A stretch of DNA of 64,000 nucleotides from an uncultured Eubacteriales bacterium. Its GTDB lineage: Bacteria > Bacillota > Clostridia > Christensenellales > CAG-138. Position numbers and translations under genes: made by a program. This document shows positions 40,828 through 52,009 of the stretch, piece by piece. The DNA lies in NCBI GenBank assembly GCA_900319345.1, contig ONNZ01000002.1, forward strand, positions 21,111 through 85,110, written 5' to 3'. The notes below the pieces were generated by a model that saw nothing but the letters and a program-made list of their open reading frames with translations, was not told the DNA's origin and ran no database searches. Position 1 is the first letter of the stretch. The number at the start of each line of letters is the position of its first letter.

Positions 40828-42852
40828 TTATAACAAGGTGCGGAAGGCCAGGCCGCTGGTGCGGTCGAACCAGGGATCTTTCCCCCGGCGGAAGCCCTCG
40901 TAGACCTGCCGACAGGTCTTGCTGTCCTCCGTGGTGAAATAGAGGGTCACGAAGTCGAAGGGCGGCAGGGCCTTGTCCCCCAGGTACAGGGGCACGGAGT
41001 TGAGGAGGGTGGTGTACCGCCGATCGTGGCAGAGCATGGGGAAGGTGACGCCCTTGCGGTCCACCAGCTCCGGTTTCCCCGCACAGCTGCCGCAGCCCTT
41101 CTCCCCCCGGGCGGGACAGGCGCGGAACTGCATGATGGGGAATCGGCCGTAAGCGAGGATGCCCCGGGGCTTCTTTCCGCCCAGCTTTGCGCCCATCTTC
41201 ACGGGCAGCTCGAAGGACAGGGTGGTATCCGCGAGGCCCATGGCTTCGTAGGTCTCCAAAGACAGGGTGTTGGTCACGTTCAAAGTGGGGCCGCCGTGGA
41301 CGACGAGCCCGGCCCGCCGGGCCAATACCAGCTCGCACACGTTCCCCGCCACCGCGTCCCTGAGACCCTTCTCCTTCAGGGCGAGAAGCCGGTCCAGGGC
41401 CGCCTGTTCCTCCAGGGGCCAGACGAGCTGGGGAAGCTCCGCCCACAGGGGCACGGCTTCCTGCAGCAGCTCCGGATGGCGCTCGATCTCCTCCAGGGGC
41501 AGGATGGCCGCTTCCGCCTCCGTCGGGAAGAAGGCCTGTTCCGCCCGCTCGAAGCGCAGGCGCAGGGCTTGTTTTTGGGAAATATAAGGCGCTATCTCGG
41601 GCGTTGCCATGGGATGGAGATCGTAGCCGTTGCCCCGACTGCGCATTTCAAGGAGCCTATCCAGGACCTCCCGCCGAAGGCCGTTCACCAGGGAGCCGGG
41701 CACGGGCAGGCCCTCCGGCAGCTCCACCCGGCAGTCGCGCACGGTGAAGGGCGTGCCGCCGGTCTTGCTAAGGTTCCGCCGGGCAATGTCCTCGGTCAAC
41801 GGGGCCATGTCCCCATCCAGGATGGGCGCGGCGGCCTGGGCCCGACGGCCAGCGCCGTCCTCCGCCGTGAGCGAAAGGGTATCGTCGGTGGCGGTGAGCT
41901 TTAGGTCCACGGGCACGCCGGGGAACTCCCGCCGGTAGAGGTCGGCCAGCTTCCCAAACACGGTCTTGGACGCCGCGGCGTCCTCCGCGGTGCGGACGCC
42001 GAACATGCGCACGTTCCGCTTGCCGGTGAGATACCCGTCGGTGAAGCCGCTGCGGGAGAACACCGCCTGCAGGGTGGCCATGTCCGGCTCCTTCCCCGCC
42101 AAAGCGTCCCGGACCGCGGTGACGGCGGCGGCCACGTACTCCGGCCGCTTCATGCGGCCCTCGATCTTCACGGAGCAGACCCCCGCCGCTTCCAGGTCCC
42201 GGACCCGGGTGATGAAGCTCATATCCTTCAACGACAGGGCGTAGGGCCGCCCGTTGCAAGATGCGTTGAGGCGGCAGGGCTGGGCGCACAGGCCCCGGTT
42301 GCCGCTGCGCTCTCCCATCATGGCAGAGTAGTAGCACATGCCGGACACGCTCATGCACAGGGCCCCATGGACGAACACTTCCAGCTCCGCCCTGGTCTCG
42401 CTCCGTATTTTGCGTATCTCCTCCAAGGTCAGCTCCCGGGCCAGGACCACCCGAGAAAAGCCCATGTCCTCCAGGGTCTTCACCCCGGCGGCGTTGTGGA
42501 CGGACATCTGGGTGGAGCCCACCAGCGGCAGGTCCGGGCAGATGGTCTTCAGCACCTTCGCCACGGCCAGGTCCTGGACGATGACCCCGTCGGGCCCCGC
42601 CTCCGCCACCTCTCGGGCGGCGGTCAAAAAGGCGGGCAGCTCCTCGTCCCGGATGAGGGTGTTGAGGGTCACGTACACCTTCACCCCCCGGCCGTGGCAG
42701 TAGTTCACCGCCTCCGCAAGGCTGTCGTCCTTGAAATTGTCCGCGTTGCGCCGGGCGTTGAAGGCGCCGGTACCCAGATAGACGGCGTCGGCGCCGCTCC
42801 TTACGGCGGCGATCAGGCTTTGTTCGTTTCCGGCAGGAGCCAATATCTCCAT
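40828..42852 (-). CDS. Peptidase U32 family protein, long form
   Basis: 674 aa. The N-terminus MEILAPAGNEQSLIAAVRSGADAVYLGTGAFNARRNADNF is typical of U32 collagenase-like / RlhA-TrhP-type proteins. Confidence 0.88.
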   Translation of the reverse strand: MEILAPAGNEQSLIAAVRSGADAVYLGTGAFNARRNADNFKDDSLAEAVNYCHGRGVKVYVTLNTLIRDEELPAFLTAAREVAEAGPDGVIVQDLAVAKVLKTICPDLPLVGSTQMSVHNAAGVKTLEDMGFSRVVLARELTLEEIRKIRSETRAELEVFVHGALCMSVSGMCYYSAMMGERSGNRGLCAQPCRLNASCNGRPYALSLKDMSFITRVRDLEAAGVCSVKIEGRMKRPEYVAAAVTAVRDALAGKEPDMATLQAVFSRSGFTDGYLTGKRNVRMFGVRTAEDAAASKTVFGKLADLYRREFPGVPVDLKLTATDDTLSLTAEDGAGRRAQAAAPILDGDMAPLTEDIARRNLSKTGGTPFTVRDCRVELPEGLPVPGSLVNGLRREVLDRLLEMRSRGNGYDLHPMATPEIAPYISQKQALRLRFERAEQAFFPTEAEAAILPLEEIERHPELLQEAVPLWAELPQLVWPLEEQAALDRLLALKEKGLRDAVAGNVCELVLARRAGLVVHGGPTLNVTNTLSLETYEAMGLADTTLSFELPVKMGAKLGGKKPRGILAYGRFPIMQFRACPARGEKGCGSCAGKPELVDRKGVTFPMLCHDRRYTTLLNSVPLYLGDKALPPFDFVTLYFTTEDSKTCRQVYEGFRRGKDPWFDRTSGLAFRTLL

Positions 42853-42878: not shown

Positions 42879-42907
42879 ATTATAGCGACCCAAATCCCTC
42901 CTTGCAA
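42879..42907 (-). promoter_or_regulatory. SigA promoter for the U32 gene
   Basis: Minus strand: TTGCAA (42907..42902), 17 nt, TATAAT (42884..42879). Confidence 0.6.
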
Positions 42908-42930
42908 TCGCTCTTTTGTGCGGGTATACT
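42902..42930 (+). promoter_or_regulatory. SigA promoter for the plus-strand block
   Basis: Plus strand: TTGCAA (42902..42907), 17 nt, TATACT (42925..42930). It uses the same palindromic hexamer as the divergent promoter. Confidence 0.6.
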
Positions 42931-42959
42931 ATAGAAAACCCTTGGAAAGGCGCAGCGAT

Positions 42960-43850
42960 ATGGAAGTCAAGAAGTTCAGAAAAAAGTGGGGCGATCGAAA
43001 GGATGGCCGCCGGATACGGAGCCTTACCGCCATGGCCATGGTCTCCCCCTATATCATGGTGACCCGAAACACCTCCAGCAACTTCTTCCGGGACACGGTG
43101 GAGATCACGGAGATCGAGAAGTACATCCGCGAGAAGCGGCGGGAAGGGCTGAAGAACTTCGGCATCATGCACGTGATCATCGCCGCCTACGTGCGGGCGG
43201 TCTCCCAGCGGCCCGCCGTCAACCGGTTCATCGCGGGGCAAAAGATCTACGCCCGGGACGAGTATATCGAGATGTCTTTGGTGGTCAAGAAGGAGATGTC
43301 CGCGAACTCCCCCGACACCTGCATCAAGCCCATTCTGGACGCCCACGACACGGCGGCGGAGATCTATCACAAGATCAATGCCCTCATCGAGCAGAACAAG
43401 GCCACGGCGGAGCTGAACAACAACTTCGACAACACAGCCAAGCTCTTCTCCTTCATCCCCGGAGTGCTGCTGAAGTTCGCCGTGTGGCTGCTGAAGCTGT
43501 TGGACTATTTCGACCTGCTGCCCCGGAAGCTGACCATGGCCAGCCCCTTCCACGCCTCCTTCTTCATCACGTCCATGGGCTCCCTGGGCATCCCGCCTAT
43601 CTATCACCACCTGTACGACTTCGGGAACATTCCCGTGTTCCTGGCCTTCGGGTCCAAGTATCGGAAGCACGAGGTGAACGCCGACGGCACCGTGTCCGAA
43701 CGGAAGTACGTGGACATCACCGCCGTCACCGACGAGCGCATCTGCGACGGCTTCTACTACGCCTCCGCCTTCAAGCTCATGCGGACCTATCTTAAGAACC
43801 CTTCCATCCTGGACGAGCCCGTGCTGGGGCCCGTGCGGGACGTGGACTGA
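42960..43850 (+). CDS. Stand-alone 2-oxoacid dehydrogenase E2 / CAT-fold acyltransferase-like protein with a substituted catalytic His
   Basis: I trimmed the start to the ATG at 42960 (MEVKKFRKKWGDRKDGRRIRSL). The C-terminal ITAVTDERICDGFYYASAFKLMRTYLKNP aligns with the E2 motif DHRxxDG but reads DERICDG. Confidence 0.65.
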   Translation: MEVKKFRKKWGDRKDGRRIRSLTAMAMVSPYIMVTRNTSSNFFRDTVEITEIEKYIREKRREGLKNFGIMHVIIAAYVRAVSQRPAVNRFIAGQKIYARDEYIEMSLVVKKEMSANSPDTCIKPILDAHDTAAEIYHKINALIEQNKATAELNNNFDNTAKLFSFIPGVLLKFAVWLLKLLDYFDLLPRKLTMASPFHASFFITSMGSLGIPPIYHHLYDFGNIPVFLAFGSKYRKHEVNADGTVSERKYVDITAVTDERICDGFYYASAFKLMRTYLKNPSILDEPVLGPVRDVD

Positions 43851-43854
43851 TCCC

Positions 43855-44442
43855 ATGGCCGCCGACAAGCGCAAACGGCGCTTCTCCACCTACATCCTGC
43901 CCATCCTGTTCTGCGGGCTGCTGATCGCCCTGGCCGTCCTGACGGACCGGCACAAAGAACAGCCCGTCAAGGGGGTGCTGCAGGAGGGCGAGCCCCTGAC
44001 GTTGACGGAGCAGGCCATGGAGAACTACCTCTATGCCGCCGGGTTCACCCTGCGGGACGAAGCGATCCTGGACGGCAGCGGTAAAGAGGTCGGGACCCTG
44101 ACCGTCGATCGCGACGGGGACGCCGTCGCGTCCATGACCCTTTCCTTCCCCCTGTCCACCTACATTCCCACGGAGGACGACGAGGGGCTGGACGGGCTGA
44201 AAGCGGCCCACGATGCTGACGCCCAGCGGGGACAGGAGCTGTTCTTAGCCCTGTTCGACGCCATCTCCGCCACGGACAAGCGGGTGGCCGCCCGGCGGGA
44301 CAGCGCTTCAGCGAAGCTCCAGACCACCATGGACACCGGCAAAGCCGCCGCCCAGGCCGCCAACAGCTGGCGGTTCGACTTCTCCCTGGCCCCCGATACC
44401 TTCGAGGGCACGGTCACCGTGTTGTTTACACTTGTAAAATAG
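43855..44442 (+). CDS. Membrane-anchored hypothetical protein
   Basis: 195 aa. The basic N-terminus MAADKRKRRFSTYILPILFCGLLIALAVL is followed by one TM helix. Its start is 4 nt after the E2-like stop. I recognised no family. Confidence 0.6.
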   Translation: MAADKRKRRFSTYILPILFCGLLIALAVLTDRHKEQPVKGVLQEGEPLTLTEQAMENYLYAAGFTLRDEAILDGSGKEVGTLTVDRDGDAVASMTLSFPLSTYIPTEDDEGLDGLKAAHDADAQRGQELFLALFDAISATDKRVAARRDSASAKLQTTMDTGKAAAQAANSWRFDFSLAPDTFEGTVTVLFTLVK

Positions 44443-44539
44443 CGTTCAAGTAGCAAATATTCCGCAATTTGGTCATAGAGTTGTGACGTTTTGGACGAAT
44501 CTGCCTGCTATGCTCGGGGCATGGAAAGGAGGTTCAGCC

Positions 44540-46030
44540 ATGAAACGGATCACAGCTTTCTTTGTATTCTGCCTTCTTTTTCTCGTCGGCTGCCAGCCCA
44601 CGCCCACCGTGGAGACGGTGCCGCCCAAGGATTTCGACGCCCTGATCGAAAAGGCGCAAACGAGCCCCGCAACCGTGCAAGTGACGCTGGTGCCGGAAGC
44701 TGAGGATATCTCTGCCGCCGCAGCAGAGGATGCATTGGAGCGCTTTCAAATGGAGTTCTATGGGAATACAGAGGCCTTCCACGTGGTGGTGGACGCCCAG
44801 GTGGTCCGGCCCCAAGGGCCCTTCCCCATCCTGGAAGTGACCCCCGGGGACTTCGACGACGAGAGCGCCCAGCCCTTCTTCGACGTGCTGACGGAGGGGT
44901 ACACCCTGTATACGGCGGAGGAGCTGGAGACCAAGGCGTCTCTGGAGAAACAGATAACGGAGATGCAGCAGTTCATCGACGACGGGCTCCCCGGCTACGA
45001 CGGCCCGGCCAGCAAGAAGAAGGACGAGATCAAGCATTGGAAAAGCGAGCTGGAAAAGCTGAAACAGCGGTATCTCACCGCCCGGGACGAGCCGGGGACC
45101 CCGGCCGCCAAGGTGCAGCTCACCTGGCGGGAGCCGGCCAAGTACGACACCCAGACTGCCGGCGCCTTCCTGGTGCAGAGCGCGGACAGGAAGCAGACCT
45201 TCCAGGTCCGGACCAACGCCACGGGCGCCCACGGCAAGCGCAACTTTGACAGCAAAGAGGCCGTGCTCCTGTTCTACAACGACGCCGCTTTGCCGGAGAA
45301 CGCCATCCGCGCCTTCTATCAGTCCGACGCCATCGAGGACAGGGACGCCGTGCCCGTTGGATCCGGCCTGACGGCCACGCCTCGGGAAGCCCAGGAGCAG
45401 GCCGAGGCCCTGGTGCAGCGGCTGGGGCTCACGGACTTTGCCGTGAAGGACGTGCGGCTGACCCACGCCCCGGAGGAGGCGGAGGGGCTGATCGGCGTGC
45501 CCTGCTACCTGTACAGCGTGTCCTTCGCGCGGATGGTGAACGGCGTCCCCGTGATCCGGCCCACCAACAGTTCCAGCTCCGGGGACGAGGCGGAGCCTCG
45601 GCCCTCCTGGACCTATGAGGAGCTGGCGATATCGCTGCGGAACAAGGATATATACGGCTTCGTCTACGGCGGCCCCCTGGTGCTGGGAAAGACCCTGGTG
45701 GAGGACGCCAACCTCATGTCCTTCGACGCGGTCATGGAGCGATTCGACCAGATGGTGCGGGTGAAGTACGAGGGCATGATGGCCGATCCCGGCTGGGGCG
45801 GCATCCTGTCCATGGAGGTTCAGGTGGACCGGATCGAGCTCAGTTTGGAGCGGGTGGCCCAGCCGGACAACATCAACGGCGGGCTGCTGGTGCCCGTGTG
45901 GAGCTTCTACGGATCCATCCTCTGCACCCGGCCGGAGGATTCCTTCGACCACGTCTTTGACCACGCCATGCCCTTCCTCACCCTGAACGCCGTGGACGGG
46001 AATCTCATCGACCCCATGAAGGGATATTGA
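44540..46030 (+). CDS. Lipoprotein paralog 1, unknown function
   Basis: I trimmed the start to the ATG at 44540, which has an AAAGGAGG RBS. Signal and lipobox: MKRITAFFVFCLLFLVGCQPTPT. C-terminus: ...LLVPVWSFYG...FLTLNAVDGNLIDPMKGY. Confidence 0.8.
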   Translation: MKRITAFFVFCLLFLVGCQPTPTVETVPPKDFDALIEKAQTSPATVQVTLVPEAEDISAAAAEDALERFQMEFYGNTEAFHVVVDAQVVRPQGPFPILEVTPGDFDDESAQPFFDVLTEGYTLYTAEELETKASLEKQITEMQQFIDDGLPGYDGPASKKKDEIKHWKSELEKLKQRYLTARDEPGTPAAKVQLTWREPAKYDTQTAGAFLVQSADRKQTFQVRTNATGAHGKRNFDSKEAVLLFYNDAALPENAIRAFYQSDAIEDRDAVPVGSGLTATPREAQEQAEALVQRLGLTDFAVKDVRLTHAPEEAEGLIGVPCYLYSVSFARMVNGVPVIRPTNSSSSGDEAEPRPSWTYEELAISLRNKDIYGFVYGGPLVLGKTLVEDANLMSFDAVMERFDQMVRVKYEGMMADPGWGGILSMEVQVDRIELSLERVAQPDNINGGLLVPVWSFYGSILCTRPEDSFDHVFDHAMPFLTLNAVDGNLIDPMKGY

Positions 46031-46043
46031 AAGGAGTGCATAT

Positions 46044-47486
46044 ATGAAAAGAATCTGCATGTTTATTCTGGTTGTCCTGTTTTTATGCGTCGGCTGTCAG
46101 CCCACGCCGGAGCAGGAATATGTGATAAACAAGAGGGACAACGATCTGGGGCAGAAGGTGGAGGCAAGGAGCGATCTGAAAGCCCAAACGTTTCCCAGCC
46201 GCTGGGAGCAGGAAGCCACAGAGGTGCGCCAGGGGCTCACCGTCCGGGTGGATGCGGACATTCTGCAGAAGGCGGACGGCCTCTACCCCGTATACCGGAC
46301 CCGTGGCGCGGACATCACCATTGACGACGCTGCGGCGTGGGCAGGGAAGCTCCTCCCCGCACCGGTGTCCCGGACCGATCGGGAATGGACCAAGGCACAA
46401 TGGGAAAAGGAGCTGCAGGATTATCTGCAGCGGATCGACGATCTCAAGGCCTGGATCGCCGCCGGCCGCCCCTACGACGGGGTGGACCGGGACGAATATC
46501 TGCCGGACCCAGAGGAGATCGAGGAACAGACGAATCAATATATGGAGCTGATTCAAAAGGCTCCGGATAAGAACAAGACCACCCCTCTCTCCGACTTTCG
46601 GGACATGCCCAAGGGGCAAGGCTACGCCTACGCCCTGTCCGACGGGTCCACCGCCTATATCAGCTGGGACGAGGACTACGTCCAGATCGGCAAGGGTTGC
46701 CGCCGGGACGCCTATATCTATTACAACTATTACTATGAGGACGAGAAGGACATGGACGATTCCCCCTATGCGCCTCTGTGGCAGGACGTGACCATGACCC
46801 GGGGGGCGGCGGAGGCGGTCCTCCAAAGGGAGCTGCAGCGGCTGGGCTTTGAGGATTTCTCCATCTTCGGTGCCTTTCCCGCCAATCTCATGGACGCGGG
46901 CGGCATGGGCGATTCGGATCGGGTGGCCGTGGGCTGGTCCTTCCATCTGAAGCGGAACCCGGGCGGCTACCCCACCGTGGACGTGCCCTATGAGCCCGCC
47001 CAGGAGCTAAACTACGGCGCCACCGATGAGTTCACCGCGAGCCCCCATATGCGGGAGGAGACGCTGGAGCTGATGGTGGACGAGCGAGGCGTGCAATGCT
47101 TCCTGTTCAGCGCCAAAAAGGAGATCGCCGGCATTGAGAACACTAACGTGGAGCTGCTGCCCTTTGAAGAGGCGAAGACCCGGATCCTCAACGCCTTCGC
47201 TATGTGCTACCCCACCTACGACTGGAACAAGGACAAGGATCTGAGGCTGGAGATCTATCGGGTGCTCATCACCTCCTACACCCTGCGCCTGCCCAACAGC
47301 GAGGACCGCCGTGAGGTGCCCTGCTATGTGGTGTTCTATGACGACAGCATCAACTATTCGGACCCCTCCCAGCCCAACTATGAACAGAACCGGGACCGGG
47401 TGCGGAACGATCCCAATCTGATGCACGACTGCCTGTTCATCAACGCGGTGGACGGGTCTGTCATCCACACGGACTGGGGCTGGTGA
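46044..47486 (+). CDS. Lipoprotein paralog 2, unknown function
   Basis: MKRICMFILVVLFLCVGCQPTPE; C-terminus ...CLFINAVDGSVIHTDWGW. The 13-nt gap contains GGAG. Confidence 0.8.
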   Translation: MKRICMFILVVLFLCVGCQPTPEQEYVINKRDNDLGQKVEARSDLKAQTFPSRWEQEATEVRQGLTVRVDADILQKADGLYPVYRTRGADITIDDAAAWAGKLLPAPVSRTDREWTKAQWEKELQDYLQRIDDLKAWIAAGRPYDGVDRDEYLPDPEEIEEQTNQYMELIQKAPDKNKTTPLSDFRDMPKGQGYAYALSDGSTAYISWDEDYVQIGKGCRRDAYIYYNYYYEDEKDMDDSPYAPLWQDVTMTRGAAEAVLQRELQRLGFEDFSIFGAFPANLMDAGGMGDSDRVAVGWSFHLKRNPGGYPTVDVPYEPAQELNYGATDEFTASPHMREETLELMVDERGVQCFLFSAKKEIAGIENTNVELLPFEEAKTRILNAFAMCYPTYDWNKDKDLRLEIYRVLITSYTLRLPNSEDRREVPCYVVFYDDSINYSDPSQPNYEQNRDRVRNDPNLMHDCLFINAVDGSVIHTDWGW

Positions 47487-47499
47487 AAGGAGTGTATAT

Positions 47500-48960
47500 A
47501 TGCGTATATTATGTATTTTTATTCTTCTATTCCTGTTGATATTCGCCGGCTGCCAGCCTACGCCGGAGGTGGAGCCGGTGATCCACAAGAACGAGGGAAC
47601 GCTGGAGCAGCAGATCAGCGCCACAGCGGCGCCGGCCTACCGGATCACCATCGACGCGGAGGAACAGAAGGAGACGGCAGCCTCGGCCACCGAGACCGTG
47701 GAAGCCACCGTCGCGCCCAGGGAGAACACCCTGCGGGAAGCCGTAGGCGCGCCGGAACGGGTGCAGGACAGCTTCGATGGGCCGGCGGTGGGAGATCAGC
47801 TGTATATAGAGATGGATGCGAAGGTGGAGGTGCCCAATGTGGAGAAGGTGCCCGTGCTGCGGGGCCAGGTGGGGTACGCGCCAGAGCAGGCGGCGGAGCG
47901 GATCACCAAGCTTCTCTTGGGGGACGGCCCCTATGTCCGCCCCGGTCACAGCGAACGGGCGTATAACCAGCTATTTATGGAGTACTATCAGAAGTGGATC
48001 GAGGCCCTGGACCAGAAGCCCTACGGCGCCGGGGCGGACTACGACCGGATACAGCAGAATCTGCAGCAGAACTTCGACGCCCACGCCGAGGGCTTCCGCA
48101 ACGCTGACACCAGCTATGATCGGCCCAGTCAGCCCTGGACCGGGAGCTTCGACGACGCCATAGAAAAAGGCATCAGCATCAGCAACGGAGAGCGAAGCGT
48201 CGGCATGGTTGCCGGCAACACCCACTTCTCCTACAGCGCGGGCAGCCACCCCTCCCTTTACGGCTGGATGGACTGCCCCCGGGGACCTCGGGATGAAGAG
48301 GAGGAACGGGACTTGCAGAACGCCGCAGACTTTGCGAACGCTTTGGGCTGCGCTCAGGTGATCCCCCAGTACATCATCGACGCGGACGAGGACACCCGGG
48401 TGCGCAACCAGGTGGAGACCGGCTATGACAGCGGCTACAAGCACTTCACCCTGCTGCCCGTCTACGAGGGCATCCCCGTGTACCCCTACACCACCATGTA
48501 CGGCTCCGACACGGGGCGGCAGGCGGCGGGGATCCCCTTCGCCCAGAACCTGGAGCAGGAGGAGATCTTCGGCACCCTGTACGAGGGGGAGGTGATCAGC
48601 CTCCAATGGAACAGCCCCTTCACGGTGCTCTCCGTGGAGAACGAGAATGTGCCGCTGCTCTCCTTCGAGCGGATCATGGAGATATTCAAGCGCCAGGTGT
48701 TCATGAGCGTGTATTGCGACCAGGGCCACCCCATCACCTACAAGATCACGGCCATCCAGTTCTCCTATATGCGGGTGCAGATCCCGGACAGCAACGACTA
48801 CTACCTGCTCCCCGTGTGGGACTTTACGGGCTATATGGTCTACGACTGGCAGATGAGCCCCGGGGACATGGCGGTGGCCCGGGGATTCTTCCACAGCATG
48901 TCCATCCTGACCATCAACGCCGTGGACGGCAGCGTCTTGGACCGGTTTTTGGGGTATTGA
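47500..48960 (+). CDS. Lipoprotein paralog 3, unknown function
   Basis: MRILCIFILLFLLIFAGCQPTPE; C-terminus ...YYLLPVWDFTGY...SILTINAVDGSVLDRFLGY. The 13-nt gap contains GGAG. Confidence 0.8.
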   Translation: MRILCIFILLFLLIFAGCQPTPEVEPVIHKNEGTLEQQISATAAPAYRITIDAEEQKETAASATETVEATVAPRENTLREAVGAPERVQDSFDGPAVGDQLYIEMDAKVEVPNVEKVPVLRGQVGYAPEQAAERITKLLLGDGPYVRPGHSERAYNQLFMEYYQKWIEALDQKPYGAGADYDRIQQNLQQNFDAHAEGFRNADTSYDRPSQPWTGSFDDAIEKGISISNGERSVGMVAGNTHFSYSAGSHPSLYGWMDCPRGPRDEEEERDLQNAADFANALGCAQVIPQYIIDADEDTRVRNQVETGYDSGYKHFTLLPVYEGIPVYPYTTMYGSDTGRQAAGIPFAQNLEQEEIFGTLYEGEVISLQWNSPFTVLSVENENVPLLSFERIMEIFKRQVFMSVYCDQGHPITYKITAIQFSYMRVQIPDSNDYYLLPVWDFTGYMVYDWQMSPGDMAVARGFFHSMSILTINAVDGSVLDRFLGY

Positions 48961-48977
48961 TTATTTTTGGCAGCCCC

Positions 48978-49040: not shown

Positions 49041-49916
49041 GTGGAAAAGCTGAAAAAATCGGTTTGCATACAGGAATGGGGCAAGGACATCCTGGCGGAC
49101 GTGCTGGGGGCGTTGCTCTACGGCGCGGGCGTGTACGTGTTCGCCGTGAACGCCAACTTCGCGCCGGGCGGGATCACGGGTCTTGCCATATTGGTAAACC
49201 ACTTCTTCCCCTTCCTGCCCATCGGCACCCTGACCGTCATCATCAACATCCCGGTCATCCTGCTGTGCTATGCGTACCTGGGCAAGAAGTATTTGGTGAA
49301 GTCCATCCTCTCCATGGGCATCATCGCCTTCGTGCTGGACGTGATCTACCCCCACGTGCCCGCCTACACCGGGGACCCGCTGCTGGCGGCCCTGTTCGCG
49401 GGCGTGATCTCCGGGGTGGGCCTCGCGCTCATCTACGCACGAGGCTACTGCACCGGCGGGTCTGACTTCATCATCATGGCCATCCGCAAGAAGTTCCCTC
49501 ACCTGTCCGTGGGCTCCATCACGCTGATCATCGACGGCTGCATCATCCTGGCGGGCGGGTTCGTGTTCGGCCGGGTGGACGCGGTGCTGCAGGGCATCGT
49601 CATGACCGGGGCCAGCACGGTCATGATCGACAAGATCCTCTACGGTGCCGGCTCCGGCAAGCGCATCACCGTCATCACCGACAAGGGCCAGGAGGTGGCG
49701 GACGCCATCGGGACCCAGCTCCACCGGGGTGTGACCATGATGAAGGTGGTGGGCGCCTACTCCGGGCTCGAGCACACCATGCTCCTCTGCGCCTGCTCCA
49801 ACTCCGAAGGGTACCGGGTGAAGAAGCTGGTCTACTCCATCGACCCCAAGGCCCTCATCATGATCTCCCCCAACGACGAGGTCTTCGGCGAGGGGTTCAA
49901 GAGTCCCGAGGATTGA
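49041..49916 (+). CDS. YitT-family membrane protein (DUF2179 C-terminal domain)
   Basis: GAGVYVFAVNANFAPGGITGLAILVNHF... No in-frame ATG lies near the conserved N-terminus. I chose the GTG at 49041, which has GGGGG 9 nt upstream. The track ORF start at 48606 overlaps lipoprotein 3. Confidence 0.75.
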   Translation: MEKLKKSVCIQEWGKDILADVLGALLYGAGVYVFAVNANFAPGGITGLAILVNHFFPFLPIGTLTVIINIPVILLCYAYLGKKYLVKSILSMGIIAFVLDVIYPHVPAYTGDPLLAALFAGVISGVGLALIYARGYCTGGSDFIIMAIRKKFPHLSVGSITLIIDGCIILAGGFVFGRVDAVLQGIVMTGASTVMIDKILYGAGSGKRITVITDKGQEVADAIGTQLHRGVTMMKVVGAYSGLEHTMLLCACSNSEGYRVKKLVYSIDPKALIMISPNDEVFGEGFKSPED

Positions 49917-49975
49917 CCTTGACGGCCCGGCCCCGAGGGGATAAGATGAAAATAGGACACAAGGAGGACGAAGAT

Positions 49976-50293
49976 ATGGCCCACAGCGAAGCCTTTTACA
50001 AGAAGCCCGAGGAGTGCCACTACTCCTTCTTCCAGCACAAGGAATGCGAGTTCTTCCCCTGCCACAAGACGGATCACCCGGAGGACTTCAACTGCCTGTT
50101 CTGCTACTGCCCCCTGTTCGCCCTGGGGAAGAAGTGCAAGGGCAACTTCCGGTACACGGAAAACGGCGTGAAGGACTGCTCGAACTGCCTCATCCCCCAC
50201 ACCCGCAAGAGCTATTCCTACATCATCTCCCGGTTCCCGGAGCTCATGGAGGTGGCGAAGGAGCAGGACCGGGCGGAAGATGAAAAGGCCTGA
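49976..50293 (+). CDS. Cysteine-rich small metal-binding-domain protein
   Basis: I chose the ATG at 49976, which has AAGGAGG upstream. The sequence is MAHSEAFYKKPEECHYSFFQHKECEFFPCHKTDHPEDFNCLFCYCPLFALGKKCKGNFRYTENGVKDCSNCLIPH. Confidence 0.7.
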   Translation: MAHSEAFYKKPEECHYSFFQHKECEFFPCHKTDHPEDFNCLFCYCPLFALGKKCKGNFRYTENGVKDCSNCLIPHTRKSYSYIISRFPELMEVAKEQDRAEDEKA

Positions 50294-50302
50294 AAAAAAC
50301 TC

Positions 50303-50331
50303 TTGCATTCTAAAATGAAATAGTGTATTAT
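50303..50331 (+). promoter_or_regulatory. SigA promoter for tRNA-Ser
   Basis: TTGCAT (50303..50308), 17 nt, TATTAT (50326..50331), with TGt immediately upstream. It lies 16 nt before the tRNA 5' end. Confidence 0.65.
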
Positions 50332-50347
50332 ACCCATCGGACCCTGT

Positions 50348-50438
50348 GCAGAGATGGCTGAGCTGGTCTAAGGCGCACGACTGGAAATCGTGTATACTAG
50401 GAATAGTATCGAGGGTTCGAATCCCTCTCTCTGCGCCA
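50348..50438 (+). tRNA. tRNA-Ser (anticodon GGA), long variable arm, CCA encoded
   Basis: gcagagatggctgagctggtctaaggcgcacgactGGAaatcgtgtatactaggaatagtatcgagggttcgaatccctctctctgcgcca. Confidence 0.9.
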
Positions 50439-50439
50439 C

Positions 50440-50477
50440 AAAAATGACACCCCAATTTGGGGTGTCATTTTTGTTTT
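50440..50477 (+). terminator. Rho-independent terminator after tRNA-Ser (hairpin 1)
   Basis: atgacacccc-aattt-ggggtgtcat followed by ttttgtttt. Confidence 0.85.
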
Positions 50478-50665: not shown

Positions 50666-52009
50666 TCATCTACCGCAAGCGGTCCCCCTTCCCCCGAGGG
50701 GAAAGGCATTTTCACGCTCCGGCAGCAGCAGAAACGCCACCGCCCACGCCGCTAAAACCACAAGGAACACCGCCTGAAGCGGCATTTTGGAAATGAGCTG
50801 TTCCATTTCATAGGGAGCGAGGTGCCCCATAACACTCTGTAAAAAATGGAGCAGGATGGGTATAAGAATGTTGTGGGAATGCAGATACATCGCCGCCATG
50901 GCGAGGCCGAACACACCCATGAACAGAAGAGAGGACTGATTCAATCCCAACAGTGTCGTTGCACCATAGACCCCGCCGCAAAGCAGGCCGTAAAGCAACC
51001 GCCGCTTTCCGCTCCGCTCCCCTTGCCGATAATACCCTTCCAGCAGGAGCGCAAATAGCAGCTCCGTGAAAAAGGCGTCGGTAAACTGCTGCCCCATAAG
51101 CTGTTCAATGATCAGGTTCCAGGGAATTTCTCTCCGCCATGCGGCCCAATAGTCTGCCGGTGTCCCGGTGAACAGCACCACGATCTCCACCAACAGAAAA
51201 ATGATCACGCCGCCGCCCGCCAACAGAGCAGGGCCGACATTTCGCGTGTGGACGATCTCGCGATAGCTGCCCTTGTCGAAATACTTCACTAAGATCCACA
51301 GTGTCACCAAGCCAAAACCAAGGCGCAACAGGATGTCCAGCAGCAGACGGGTCGCGGGCTCCTGAGCGAACCCCTGCGCCATATACTCGGCGCTCACGAA
51401 CCCCAGGCAGATCAGCACCGCCATCCAAAACCCGCCCCGGGGCCGCCAGCGATCCTGCCGCTGCTCCGCCATGCCCGCTTCCCATTCGGGGTCCATCTTT
51501 CGGATGACCTTGTCAAACACCCGGCTCTCTGCATAGGTCATCATGCGGTTATACAGCACCACATAGAAGGCCATCAGCAGGAGGCCAGCCGTAAACGTGA
51601 TGAGAAAGATGTTCACGCCTTTATACTTCAGGGCCAGGAGTATCACCAGCCAGCAGACAACGCAGCAAGCCATGGTGAACATATTGTCTTTGCGCCATTT
51701 GCGCTTGAAGAAGGCCAATCGTTCCTCGATGGTAAAGGGGCTTTCTGACAGGGCCGATTTTATATTCTCCTCCGCCCTTTCCCGATAGGTCTCTTCCGTG
51801 AGCCTTTCCCCACTCAGTATTTCATTGATGGAGACGCTGTACCGTTCGCTTAAGCGTTGCAGCATCTCCACCGGCGGCAAGTAAGTGCCCGTCTCCCACC
51901 GGGACACCGTCTTATTGGAAACGCCCAGGGATTCTCCCAGCTCCTCCTGAGTGAGGTCGTTTTCCTTTCGAAGCTCCGCTAAAAAGGCGCCAATGCGCGT
52001 TATGTCCAT
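50666..52009 (-). CDS. XRE-family HTH fused to a polytopic membrane region ending in a degenerate CPBP (CAAX-protease)-like domain
   Basis: 447 aa. N-terminus: MDITRIGAFLAELRKENDLTQEELGESLGVSNKTVSRWETGTYLPPVEMLQRLSERYSVSINEIL (HTH_3). Multiple TM helices follow. The C-terminus resembles CPBP motifs, but the key residues are changed: FTELLFALLLEGYY, VYGATT and ILLHFLQS. GC is lower than the flanks; I counted 29/60 in 51601..51660. Confidence 0.7.
   Translation of the reverse strand: MDITRIGAFLAELRKENDLTQEELGESLGVSNKTVSRWETGTYLPPVEMLQRLSERYSVSINEILSGERLTEETYRERAEENIKSALSESPFTIEERLAFFKRKWRKDNMFTMACCVVCWLVILLALKYKGVNIFLITFTAGLLLMAFYVVLYNRMMTYAESRVFDKVIRKMDPEWEAGMAEQRQDRWRPRGGFWMAVLICLGFVSAEYMAQGFAQEPATRLLLDILLRLGFGLVTLWILVKYFDKGSYREIVHTRNVGPALLAGGGVIIFLLVEIVVLFTGTPADYWAAWRREIPWNLIIEQLMGQQFTDAFFTELLFALLLEGYYRQGERSGKRRLLYGLLCGGVYGATTLLGLNQSSLLFMGVFGLAMAAMYLHSHNILIPILLHFLQSVMGHLAPYEMEQLISKMPLQAVFLVVLAAWAVAFLLLPERENAFPLGGRGTACGR

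Follow-up and report, generated by a model that had tools for sequence, protein, structure and literature searches.

A tandem triplet of DUF6034 lipoproteins in a rumen Clostridial genome: candidate sensing modules with a YycH-like predicted fold

Accessory-protein sensing in Gram-positive anaerobes is poorly understood. The walRK operon co-transcribes yycH and yycI, and their products, each with a large extracellular domain, are regulators of the kinase (PMC7355866). A second described arrangement is that of the BlaIR-type systems, in which a 2026 study of C. difficile CenIR found that only ~6% of M56 ‘BlaR’ proteins have a penicillin-binding domain, that the sensing domains are diverse and that 96% of these proteins are located near a BlaI (PMC13492132); DUF6034 is not discussed in that study. 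Here we describe three consecutive plus-strand genes, P1, P2 and P3 (Table 1), in a 64-kb stretch of DNA from an uncultured Eubacteriales bacterium (contig ONNZ01000002.1, positions 21,111 to 85,110; the whole stretch is called the window below). They encode deeply diverged lipoprotein paralogues that profile searches place in the catalogued but uncharacterised family DUF6034 (PF19499). At the system level, YycH/YycI and the BlaR1 sensor position are the nearest characterised counterparts of this family, which differs from them in anchor, sequence, partner kinase and copy number. We propose that the triplet encodes lipid-anchored extracytoplasmic sensing or co-sensing modules that act on a transducer encoded elsewhere, a reading that we rate about equally likely to be right or wrong. 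It is a useful functional lead for DUF6034 and not a new kind of system.

The PF19499 matches have E-values of 1.4e-64 (P1), 5.4e-27 (P2) and 2.8e-38 (P3) and scores of 219.3, 95.3 and 132.5 bits, respectively, against a gathering threshold of 27 bits. P1 (residues 1-496) and P2 span model positions 1-481 and P3 aligns in two stretches, and the same model was matched by 100 of the 100 homologues collected. Global identity among the three proteins is only 20-26%, and pairwise BLAST gave E-values of 2e-11 (P1-P3), 5e-7 to 2e-8 (P1-P2) and 5e-9 (P2-P3). Because the same Pfam model spans each protein and the pairwise E-values are significant, their paralogy is, by sequence, far beyond chance. An earlier sequence-only reading of this DNA had described three tandem, deeply diverged lipoprotein paralogues, with which the coordinates, sizes, family matches, identities and lipoprotein signals all agree. 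It had assigned neither a named family nor a catalytic motif. A family name does exist, since Pfam DUF6034 matches all three, but Pfam, NCBIfam and PDB profile searches indeed returned no catalytic family or motif for P1-P3. NCBIfam, PADLOC and PHROGs gave nothing meaningful for P1-P3 or for the two genes upstream (up195 and up310), and a literature search for DUF6034 and PF19499 found no paper that mentions DUF6034.

With more than 5,000 clusters at 50% identity, DUF6034 ranks among the larger lipoprotein families of gut and rumen Clostridia that are still uncharacterised. At a cutoff of E<=1e-3, a profile search of 1.84 billion representative proteins returned 5,175 such clusters; at E<=1e-30 there were 1,972. 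P3 yielded the richest homologue set of the three paralogues (129 sequences). For the gene neighbourhoods, open reading frames (ORFs) were called in 80 diverse metagenome loci and DUF6034 was marked with a local hidden Markov model (HMM); counts of adjacent signalling genes refer to 74 of these loci. A survey of homologue copy number, as the sequence-only reading had proposed, showed that tandem arrays are common across the family: about half of the 74 loci carry at least two copies, despite short contigs, locus L008 has five, and L014 packs at least 10 into 17 kb. Below the level of orthologues, relatives outside the window are 51% (P1), 40% (P2) and up to 68% (P3) identical; for relatives in the arrays of other organisms the range is 37-51%. 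Since the paralogues are closer to relatives elsewhere than to each other, the triplet represents old lineages of an arrayed family and no private triplication. The idea of an old tandem triplication was thus right about the age of the copies but not about a local event, because closer relatives occur in the arrays of other organisms. An in-frame TAG interrupts the P1 orthologue in L004 (7986-9497), and a frameshift the middle gene of L005 (906-2398); these lesions are either pseudogenised array members in some metagenome-assembled genomes (MAGs) or assembly errors.

The ends of the three genes are better conserved than their identity suggests. The lipobox contexts LVGCQPTPT (P1), CVGCQPTPE (P2) and FAGCQPTPE (P3) are present in the ORFs, the C-termini share ...NAVDG...GY, and the translations contain the elements LLVPVWSFYG and YLLPVWDFTGY as well as the segment TPREAQEQAEALVQRLGLTDFAVKDVRL. 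The two 13-nt intergenic spacers are near-identical, TGAaaggagtgCatatATG (P1-P2) versus TGAaaggagtgTatatATG (P2-P3), or, written against each other, TGAaaggagtgC/TatatATG. The lipobox contexts, C-termini, upstream elements and junctions quoted in the sequence-only reading were therefore all recovered. The open frame of P1 reaches upstream to a GTG at 44483, and the ATG at 44540 has GGAGG 7 nt upstream. The best-conserved DNA element in the triplet is a 162-nt junction module that occurs as a direct repeat with 70% identity and 1456-nt spacing. Ongoing gene conversion among P1, P2 and P3 found no support, as identity at third codon positions of the conserved ends is 0.50-0.62, similar to that at first and second positions. 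The conserved ends are kept as protein signals and ribosome-binding site (RBS) signals.

P1 (FLVGC) and P3 (IFAGC) pass a strict PROSITE-type lipobox pattern, and P2 (LCVGC) fails it solely at position -3, where it has a Cys; the lipobox claimed for all three proteins stands in its strict form for two of them. In the family as a whole, a lipobox was found in 267 of 294 full-length members, and the LPAM_1 model matches 23 of 100. The motif C-[Q/V/L]-P-T-P directly follows the lipobox in 185 of the 267 lipobox-bearing members. From these signals, the triplet proteins would be lipidated and exposed at the surface. The motif is retained even in fusions to M56 peptidases (see below), where lipidation is not expected. 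Its conservation suggests that the residues after the lipobox cysteine have a role beyond the lipobox itself.

We modelled P3 with AlphaFold2 from a 100-sequence alignment. The model has a predicted local distance difference test (pLDDT) score of 88.6 and a predicted template-modelling (pTM) score of 0.84. In it, the signal peptide leads into a disordered tether (~18-72), which is followed by three alpha/beta modules; a long helical hairpin belongs to the first module. A Foldseek search against the PDB returned only three credible matches. The best was 5coz (EUBREC_2869 of Eubacterium rectale; E 8e-10, 444 aligned columns, TM-score 0.49 normalised to the target). This protein comes from a related gut Clostridium, but it is shorter (347 residues) and has no detectable sequence similarity to the triplet, and a literature search for 5COZ found no functional paper for this structural-genomics entry of unknown function. 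The other two matches were both to YycH, namely 9a5d_B, from a model of WalK with YycH (E 1.3e-5, prob 1.0), and the crystal structure 2fgt (E 2e-3, prob 0.99), with TM-scores of about 0.21-0.27 over ~230-240 columns, which is a partial, multi-domain similarity. The HMMs of YycH (PF07435) and YycI (PF09648) had no match at E<=1 in P1-P3 or in 100 relatives, and PDB sequence profile searches gave coiled-coil noise only, with no match to 2fgt or 5coz. Low TM-scores would be expected of multi-domain proteins whose domains are arranged differently, and we therefore call the predicted fold YycH-like rather than homologous to YycH. Both kinds of protein would be membrane-tethered, with a large multi-module extracytoplasmic alpha/beta part. 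They differ in the tether, as the triplet proteins have cleavable lipoprotein signals and not an N-terminal transmembrane helix; such a helix is kept only in the M56 fusions.

The gene neighbourhood of the family points to signalling as well. When 149 proteins flanking DUF6034 (within two genes on either side) were scanned against Pfam, only HAMP/HisKA/HATPase_c kinases (16 proteins) and OmpR-type regulators (14) were recurrent, and every other family was found at most twice. The same-strand order response regulator (RR), histidine kinase (HK) and DUF6034, the last in 1 to 5 copies, occurs in 20 of the 74 loci, mostly with 15-118 nt between kinase and DUF6034 gene; a widespread gut locus (L015/L016) has the order DUF6034-RR-HK. 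The linked kinases fall into about 10 lineages that are <60% identical to each other, measure 456-484 amino acids (aa) and have two transmembrane helices around a ~125-aa outer loop, and 21 of 22 kinase-adjacent DUF6034 proteins have a lipobox. The binomial probability of this RR-HK adjacency is 3e-12 to 6e-8, or 4e-7 to 2e-4 when independent lineages are counted conservatively, on an assumed kinase background of 1-2% of genes that is our own estimate. Relatives of the triplet itself take part in such loci: a P2 homologue (40% identical) lies in the array of L088, which is linked to a two-component system (TCS), and a P3 homologue (37% identical) directly follows the RR-HK pair in L034. The position of DUF6034 genes after RR-HK mirrors the order walR-walK-yycH-yycI, although the partner kinases are of a ~460-aa HAMP type without the PAS domains of WalK.

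A second link to signal transduction is covalent. Among the top 150 family representatives, six have a Peptidase_M56 domain followed by a full-length DUF6034 (P0160, P0221, P0243, P0275 and P0295, and P0247 with an N-terminally truncated M56). These proteins are ~800 aa long; a BlaR1-type Peptidase_M56 (E 1e-47 to 1e-54) takes up the first ~320 residues, and a complete DUF6034 makes up the rest. At the join, a hydrophobic transmembrane helix is followed by (T)ACQPTP. What is a signal peptide in the lipoproteins thus serves in the fusions as the final transmembrane helix, with DUF6034 outside the membrane at the position of the penicillin-binding sensor of BlaR1. Both fusion genes inspected (P0295 and P0160, in loci L011 and L012) directly follow and overlap a Penicillinase_R (BlaI/MecI) gene, and L011 has two BlaI and M56-DUF6034 pairs in tandem. 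The likeness to BlaR1/MecR1 and other BlaIR-type proteins, including CenIR, thus covers both the predicted sensor position after the last transmembrane helix and the gene position after a BlaI-type repressor. In contrast to BlaR1/MecR1, DUF6034 is no penicillin-binding or transpeptidase domain, and the window proteins are free lipoproteins without M56. If the sensing role is true, DUF6034 would exemplify the varied non-beta-lactam sensor domains recently noted in BlaIR-family systems. Fusions are a minority, making up 6 of the 150 top representatives and 1 of 145 metagenome ORFs. The BlaI and M56-DUF6034 pairs (L011 4613-11215; L012 4621-7406) adjoin serine recombinase, Mob_Pre and TnpV genes, so that mobile elements apparently carry these cassettes.

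In the mechanism that we propose, the three-module alpha/beta part would face outward after a disordered tether of ~55 residues. Outside the membrane it would bind either a partner protein or a ligand from the envelope or the environment, and it would modulate a membrane signal transducer. In some organisms DUF6034 is fused to the end of a BlaR1-type M56 sensor-protease, which has a BlaI repressor under its control, and in many others it is a free lipoprotein encoded directly after an RR-HK pair. In the window it forms a stand-alone triplet whose transducer, if any, would be encoded elsewhere in the genome, and the paralogues together with swappable alleles of the middle gene may form a panel of binding specificities. 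The role in surface recognition or interaction that the sequence-only reading had favoured fits the BlaR1-type fusions, the TCS adjacency and the YycH-like fold. Extending the proposal from the triplet to the family is more tentative: DUF6034 might be an unrecognised, very widespread class of YycH-like Clostridial co-sensors that serve histidine kinases when free and BlaR1-type proteases when fused. Their sensory specificities would arise and be shuffled in rumen and gut populations through arrays and through cassette-like exchange of the mature part between junction modules, and we regard this as possible at best and clearly on the unlikely side. The YycH fold link, the position after RR-HK and the use at the BlaR1 sensor position nonetheless make a testable hypothesis out of a family of unknown function.

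Several observations weigh against a sensing role of the triplet. Firstly, YycH and YycI contact WalK through transmembrane helices, which processed lipoproteins lack, and signalling in B. subtilis is reported to proceed without their extracellular domains (PMC7355866). Secondly, the fold likeness is partial, with TM-scores of 0.26-0.49, and Pfam and PDB profile searches detected no sequence similarity to YycH, YycI or PepSY. Thirdly, the 64-kb window contains no histidine kinase, response regulator, M56 or BlaI gene. A function for the triplet is therefore transferred from relatives that are 25-40% identical. Lack of an adjacent TCS is the rule in the family (54 of 74 loci), and the triplet is of this ‘orphan’ type, like about 70% of family loci. 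The absence of an adjacent kinase also separates the window triplet from YycH/YycI, as do the DUF6034 arrays of up to at least 10 copies. Lastly, where a TCS does adjoin DUF6034, the adjacency could mean that the lipoprotein is a regulated target and not a co-sensor.

This last point leads to the main rival explanation, in which the DUF6034 proteins are variable envelope lipoproteins with a structural, protective or adhesive role and hence outputs of signalling, diversified under pressure from phages, hosts or competitors, with the adjoining TCS merely regulating them. The rates of evolution bear on it in both directions. The ratio of nonsynonymous to synonymous substitution rates (dN/dS), calculated against orthologues in L001, L002 and L004, was 0.24 for P1 and 0.23 for P3, compared with 0.05-0.15 for up310 and 0.15-0.25 for a neighbouring U32 peptidase. 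P1 and P3 are thus under purifying selection that is mildly relaxed compared with their neighbours. Gene-wide positive selection was rejected at these values (0.23-0.24). The diversifying bodies noted in the sequence-only reading do not amount to positive selection, and the word goes further than the selection data. Relative to L001, dS was 0.009 for P2, 0.116 for P1, 0.355 for P3 and 0.10-0.19 for the flanks, and this uneven, mosaic pattern indicates recombination.

The middle gene differs strongly among close relatives. The window and L001 share one allele class of the middle slot (99.8% identical), and L002 (9502-10956) and L004 (9514-10962) have another (81% identical to each other). Identity between the classes is ~30% and confined to the N-terminal ~176 residues, and of the conserved ends only the signal-peptide region is shared. 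Rumen RNA and DNA contigs leave the window sequence at ~46110, right after the lipobox-QPTP, read from there as the other class (‘..VDAVKQKN’) and return to the window sequence at ~47484 (‘GSIIDVMKGY*’). From these breakpoints, the exchanged unit is the part that codes for the mature protein, bounded by the junction modules. Measured against P1 and P3, the depth of the window P2 allele is about 10-35% in some samples and equal in others, and a third variant of the middle slot occurs in run X17. The middle gene therefore has at least two and perhaps three allele classes, deeply divergent from one another, that coexist in rumen samples, and they offer a natural system in which to study strain-level variation of the sensory or surface repertoire within one rumen species. 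In two RNA runs, contigs also show a triplet-less join from ~44389-44424 to ~48974-48977, which links the end of up195 with the sequence upstream of the YitT gene, with 148 nt on the shorter side in X30 and 26 nt in X25; this form was seen in 0 of 8 DNA runs, is unconfirmed and is not relied on here.

Arrays of 2 to at least 10 divergent copies, coexisting alleles, apparently pseudogenised copies in L004 and L005, the many loci without an adjacent transducer and evolution faster than that of housekeeping neighbours are all what would be expected from variable output proteins. A covalent fusion at a BlaR1-type sensor position beside BlaI is, however, hard to explain for a pure output, and so is the fold likeness to a kinase regulator. 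A dN/dS of about 0.24 without gene-wide positive selection also speaks against this rival, and Pfam found no adhesin-type repeats or cell-wall anchors in P1-P3. Taking both sides together, we consider it rather unlikely that the triplet proteins are envelope outputs of this kind.

Another possibility is that DUF6034 is a PepSY-type regulator or chaperone that binds a secreted protease or a cell-wall hydrolase and restrains or stabilises it, as in the propeptides of M4 proteases or in YpeB with the cortex lytic enzyme SleB. The sequence-only reading had seen a PepSY resemblance in these proteins, and there is weak fold-level evidence for it. When the C-terminal 229 residues of P3 were modelled alone (pLDDT 83.7), the best match was to vibriolysin MCP-02, in its FTP-PepSY propeptide (3nqz_A; E 0.029, prob 0.96). 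The C-terminal domain of YpeB, which consists of PepSY repeats, was also matched (5boi; E 0.064, prob 0.94, TM-score 0.37). The last two modules have a helix-plus-beta-sheet topology, and the ..v.vDa.tG.. ending of DUF6034 proteins appears to resemble the PepSY signature. Matches to the FTP HMM (PF07504) recurred in 7 of 100 members, all of them sub-threshold (best E 0.012; P3 12.3 bits versus a cutoff of 21), but the PepSY HMM (PF03413) matched none of the 100, so that the resemblance does not extend to the PepSY family by sequence. On the basis of the model, it seems reasonable to call the C-terminal modules PepSY/FTP-like as a module type, with no family assignment.

Against a function of the PepSY kind stand the marginal E-values (0.03-0.06) of the Foldseek matches. 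Genes for proteases or hydrolases do not recur beside DUF6034, and the U32 peptidase in the window is divergently transcribed and no family-wide neighbour. The presence of SpoIIIAA, 4 kb from the triplet, indicates that the organism is a spore former, which would suit a YpeB-like role. A sporulation link of the triplet was nevertheless rejected: the 4 kb to SpoIIIAA include a change of strand, and no other finding connects the triplet with spores. The presence of the triplet in bulk rumen RNA at neighbour-like depth (see below) does not suggest a spore-specific gene either. We regard a PepSY-type role as quite unlikely.

Four distant loci have a conserved, unannotated ATP-binding cassette (ABC)-type module together with DUF6034 genes (L009 1354-7749, L014 3157-4914, L007 11548-13353 and L015 11790-16212). 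It consists of a ~582-601-aa polytopic membrane protein without a Pfam family, which in L015 is split into 228 and 297 aa, together with an ABC ATPase and a protein of 486-721 aa that is secreted and has a CARDB domain. This co-occurrence would fit a DUF6034 protein that serves as accessory lipoprotein of an uncharacterised ABC-type export or uptake machine. However, the module is absent from the window, ABC_tran was found in only 2 of the 149 flanking proteins, the DUF6034 fold is unlike that of a solute-binding protein and in L015 the module co-occurs with a TCS of which it may be the target, all of which makes such a partnership very unlikely. A phage receptor or tail-like origin was dismissed, as a Foldseek search of viral structures gave a best E of 0.43.

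The window has a GC content of ~62% and derives from a Clostridial genome whose closest relatives are rumen MAGs, and its sequence occurs in bovine, sheep and other gut metagenomes. The triplet is part of a same-strand block in the order up310, up195, triplet, a YitT-family membrane protein, a small Cys-rich protein and tRNA-Ser. The gap between up310 and up195 is 4 nt, the only promoter-like sigma-70-type site upstream of the block precedes up310, and no terminator and no Rfam element was found within the block. Rumen and sheep metatranscriptome contigs cover up310, up195, P1, the 3′ half of P3 and the YitT gene at similar depth, although contig depth is a rough guide only and metatranscriptome libraries can contain DNA. 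RNA contigs bridge the up195-P1 gap (3 records) and the junction of P1 with the middle gene. This is consistent with polycistronic transcription in ordinary growth.

Table 1. Features of the triplet and its surroundings (positions in the window)
Feature	Position	Strand	Description	Basis
P1	44540..46030	+	496-aa DUF6034 lipoprotein precursor; lipobox LVGC, Cys18, then QPTP	ORF, PF19499 match
P2	46044..47486	+	480-aa DUF6034 paralogue, polymorphic middle slot; lipobox LCVGC atypical	ORF, PF19499 match
P3	47500..48960	+	486-aa DUF6034 lipoprotein precursor; lipobox FAGC	ORF, PF19499 match
Junction module 1	45973..46134	+	Last ~19 P1 codons (..NAVDG..GY*), 13-nt spacer with RBS AAAGGAG, P2 signal peptide through lipobox-QPTPE	Direct repeat D1
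Junction module 2	47429..47590	+	Same elements as module 1, between P2 and P3	Direct repeat D1
C-[Q/V/L]-P-T-P sites	44591-44605, 46095-46109, 47551-47565		Post-lipobox motif	
Promoter-like site	42902-42930		Sigma-70-type, precedes up310	
up310	42918..43850	+	310 aa, weak 2-oxoacid dehydrogenase acyltransferase-like C-terminus; first gene of block	PF00198 E 8e-9
up195	43855..44442	+	195 aa, N-terminal membrane anchor, no known family	ORF, family scans
SpoIIIAA	39837-40784	-	Upstream, divergent; start of spoIIIA operon, 4 kb from triplet	
U32 peptidase with DUF3656	40828-42852	-	Upstream, divergently transcribed	
tRNA-Ser(GGA)	50348-50438	+	Downstream of triplet	
Long ORF	49832-50455	-	Probably spurious	
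447-aa protein	50669-52009	-	HTH_3 and Rce1/CPBP-like domains	

The gene up195 had no match in Pfam, NCBIfam, PADLOC or PHROGs. It is syntenic with the triplet in L001, L002, L004 and L006 and absent from 90 other loci, and it is probably a co-transcribed upstream partner of the triplet in close relatives only. It is also the fastest-evolving gene of the block, with a dN/dS of 0.29-0.49 and 60% identity where up310 has 85-95%.

Downstream of the triplet, the long minus-strand ORF in Table 1 is probably spurious, because it overlaps the tRNA-Ser(GGA) gene and the plus-strand coding genes upstream of that tRNA. Further on, 1.7 kb downstream of the triplet and on the opposite strand, the 447-aa protein has a DNA-binding HTH_3 domain at its N-terminus and, after it, a multi-pass membrane region with an Rce1/CPBP-like intramembrane protease domain at the end; it is a possible membrane-tethered transcription factor.

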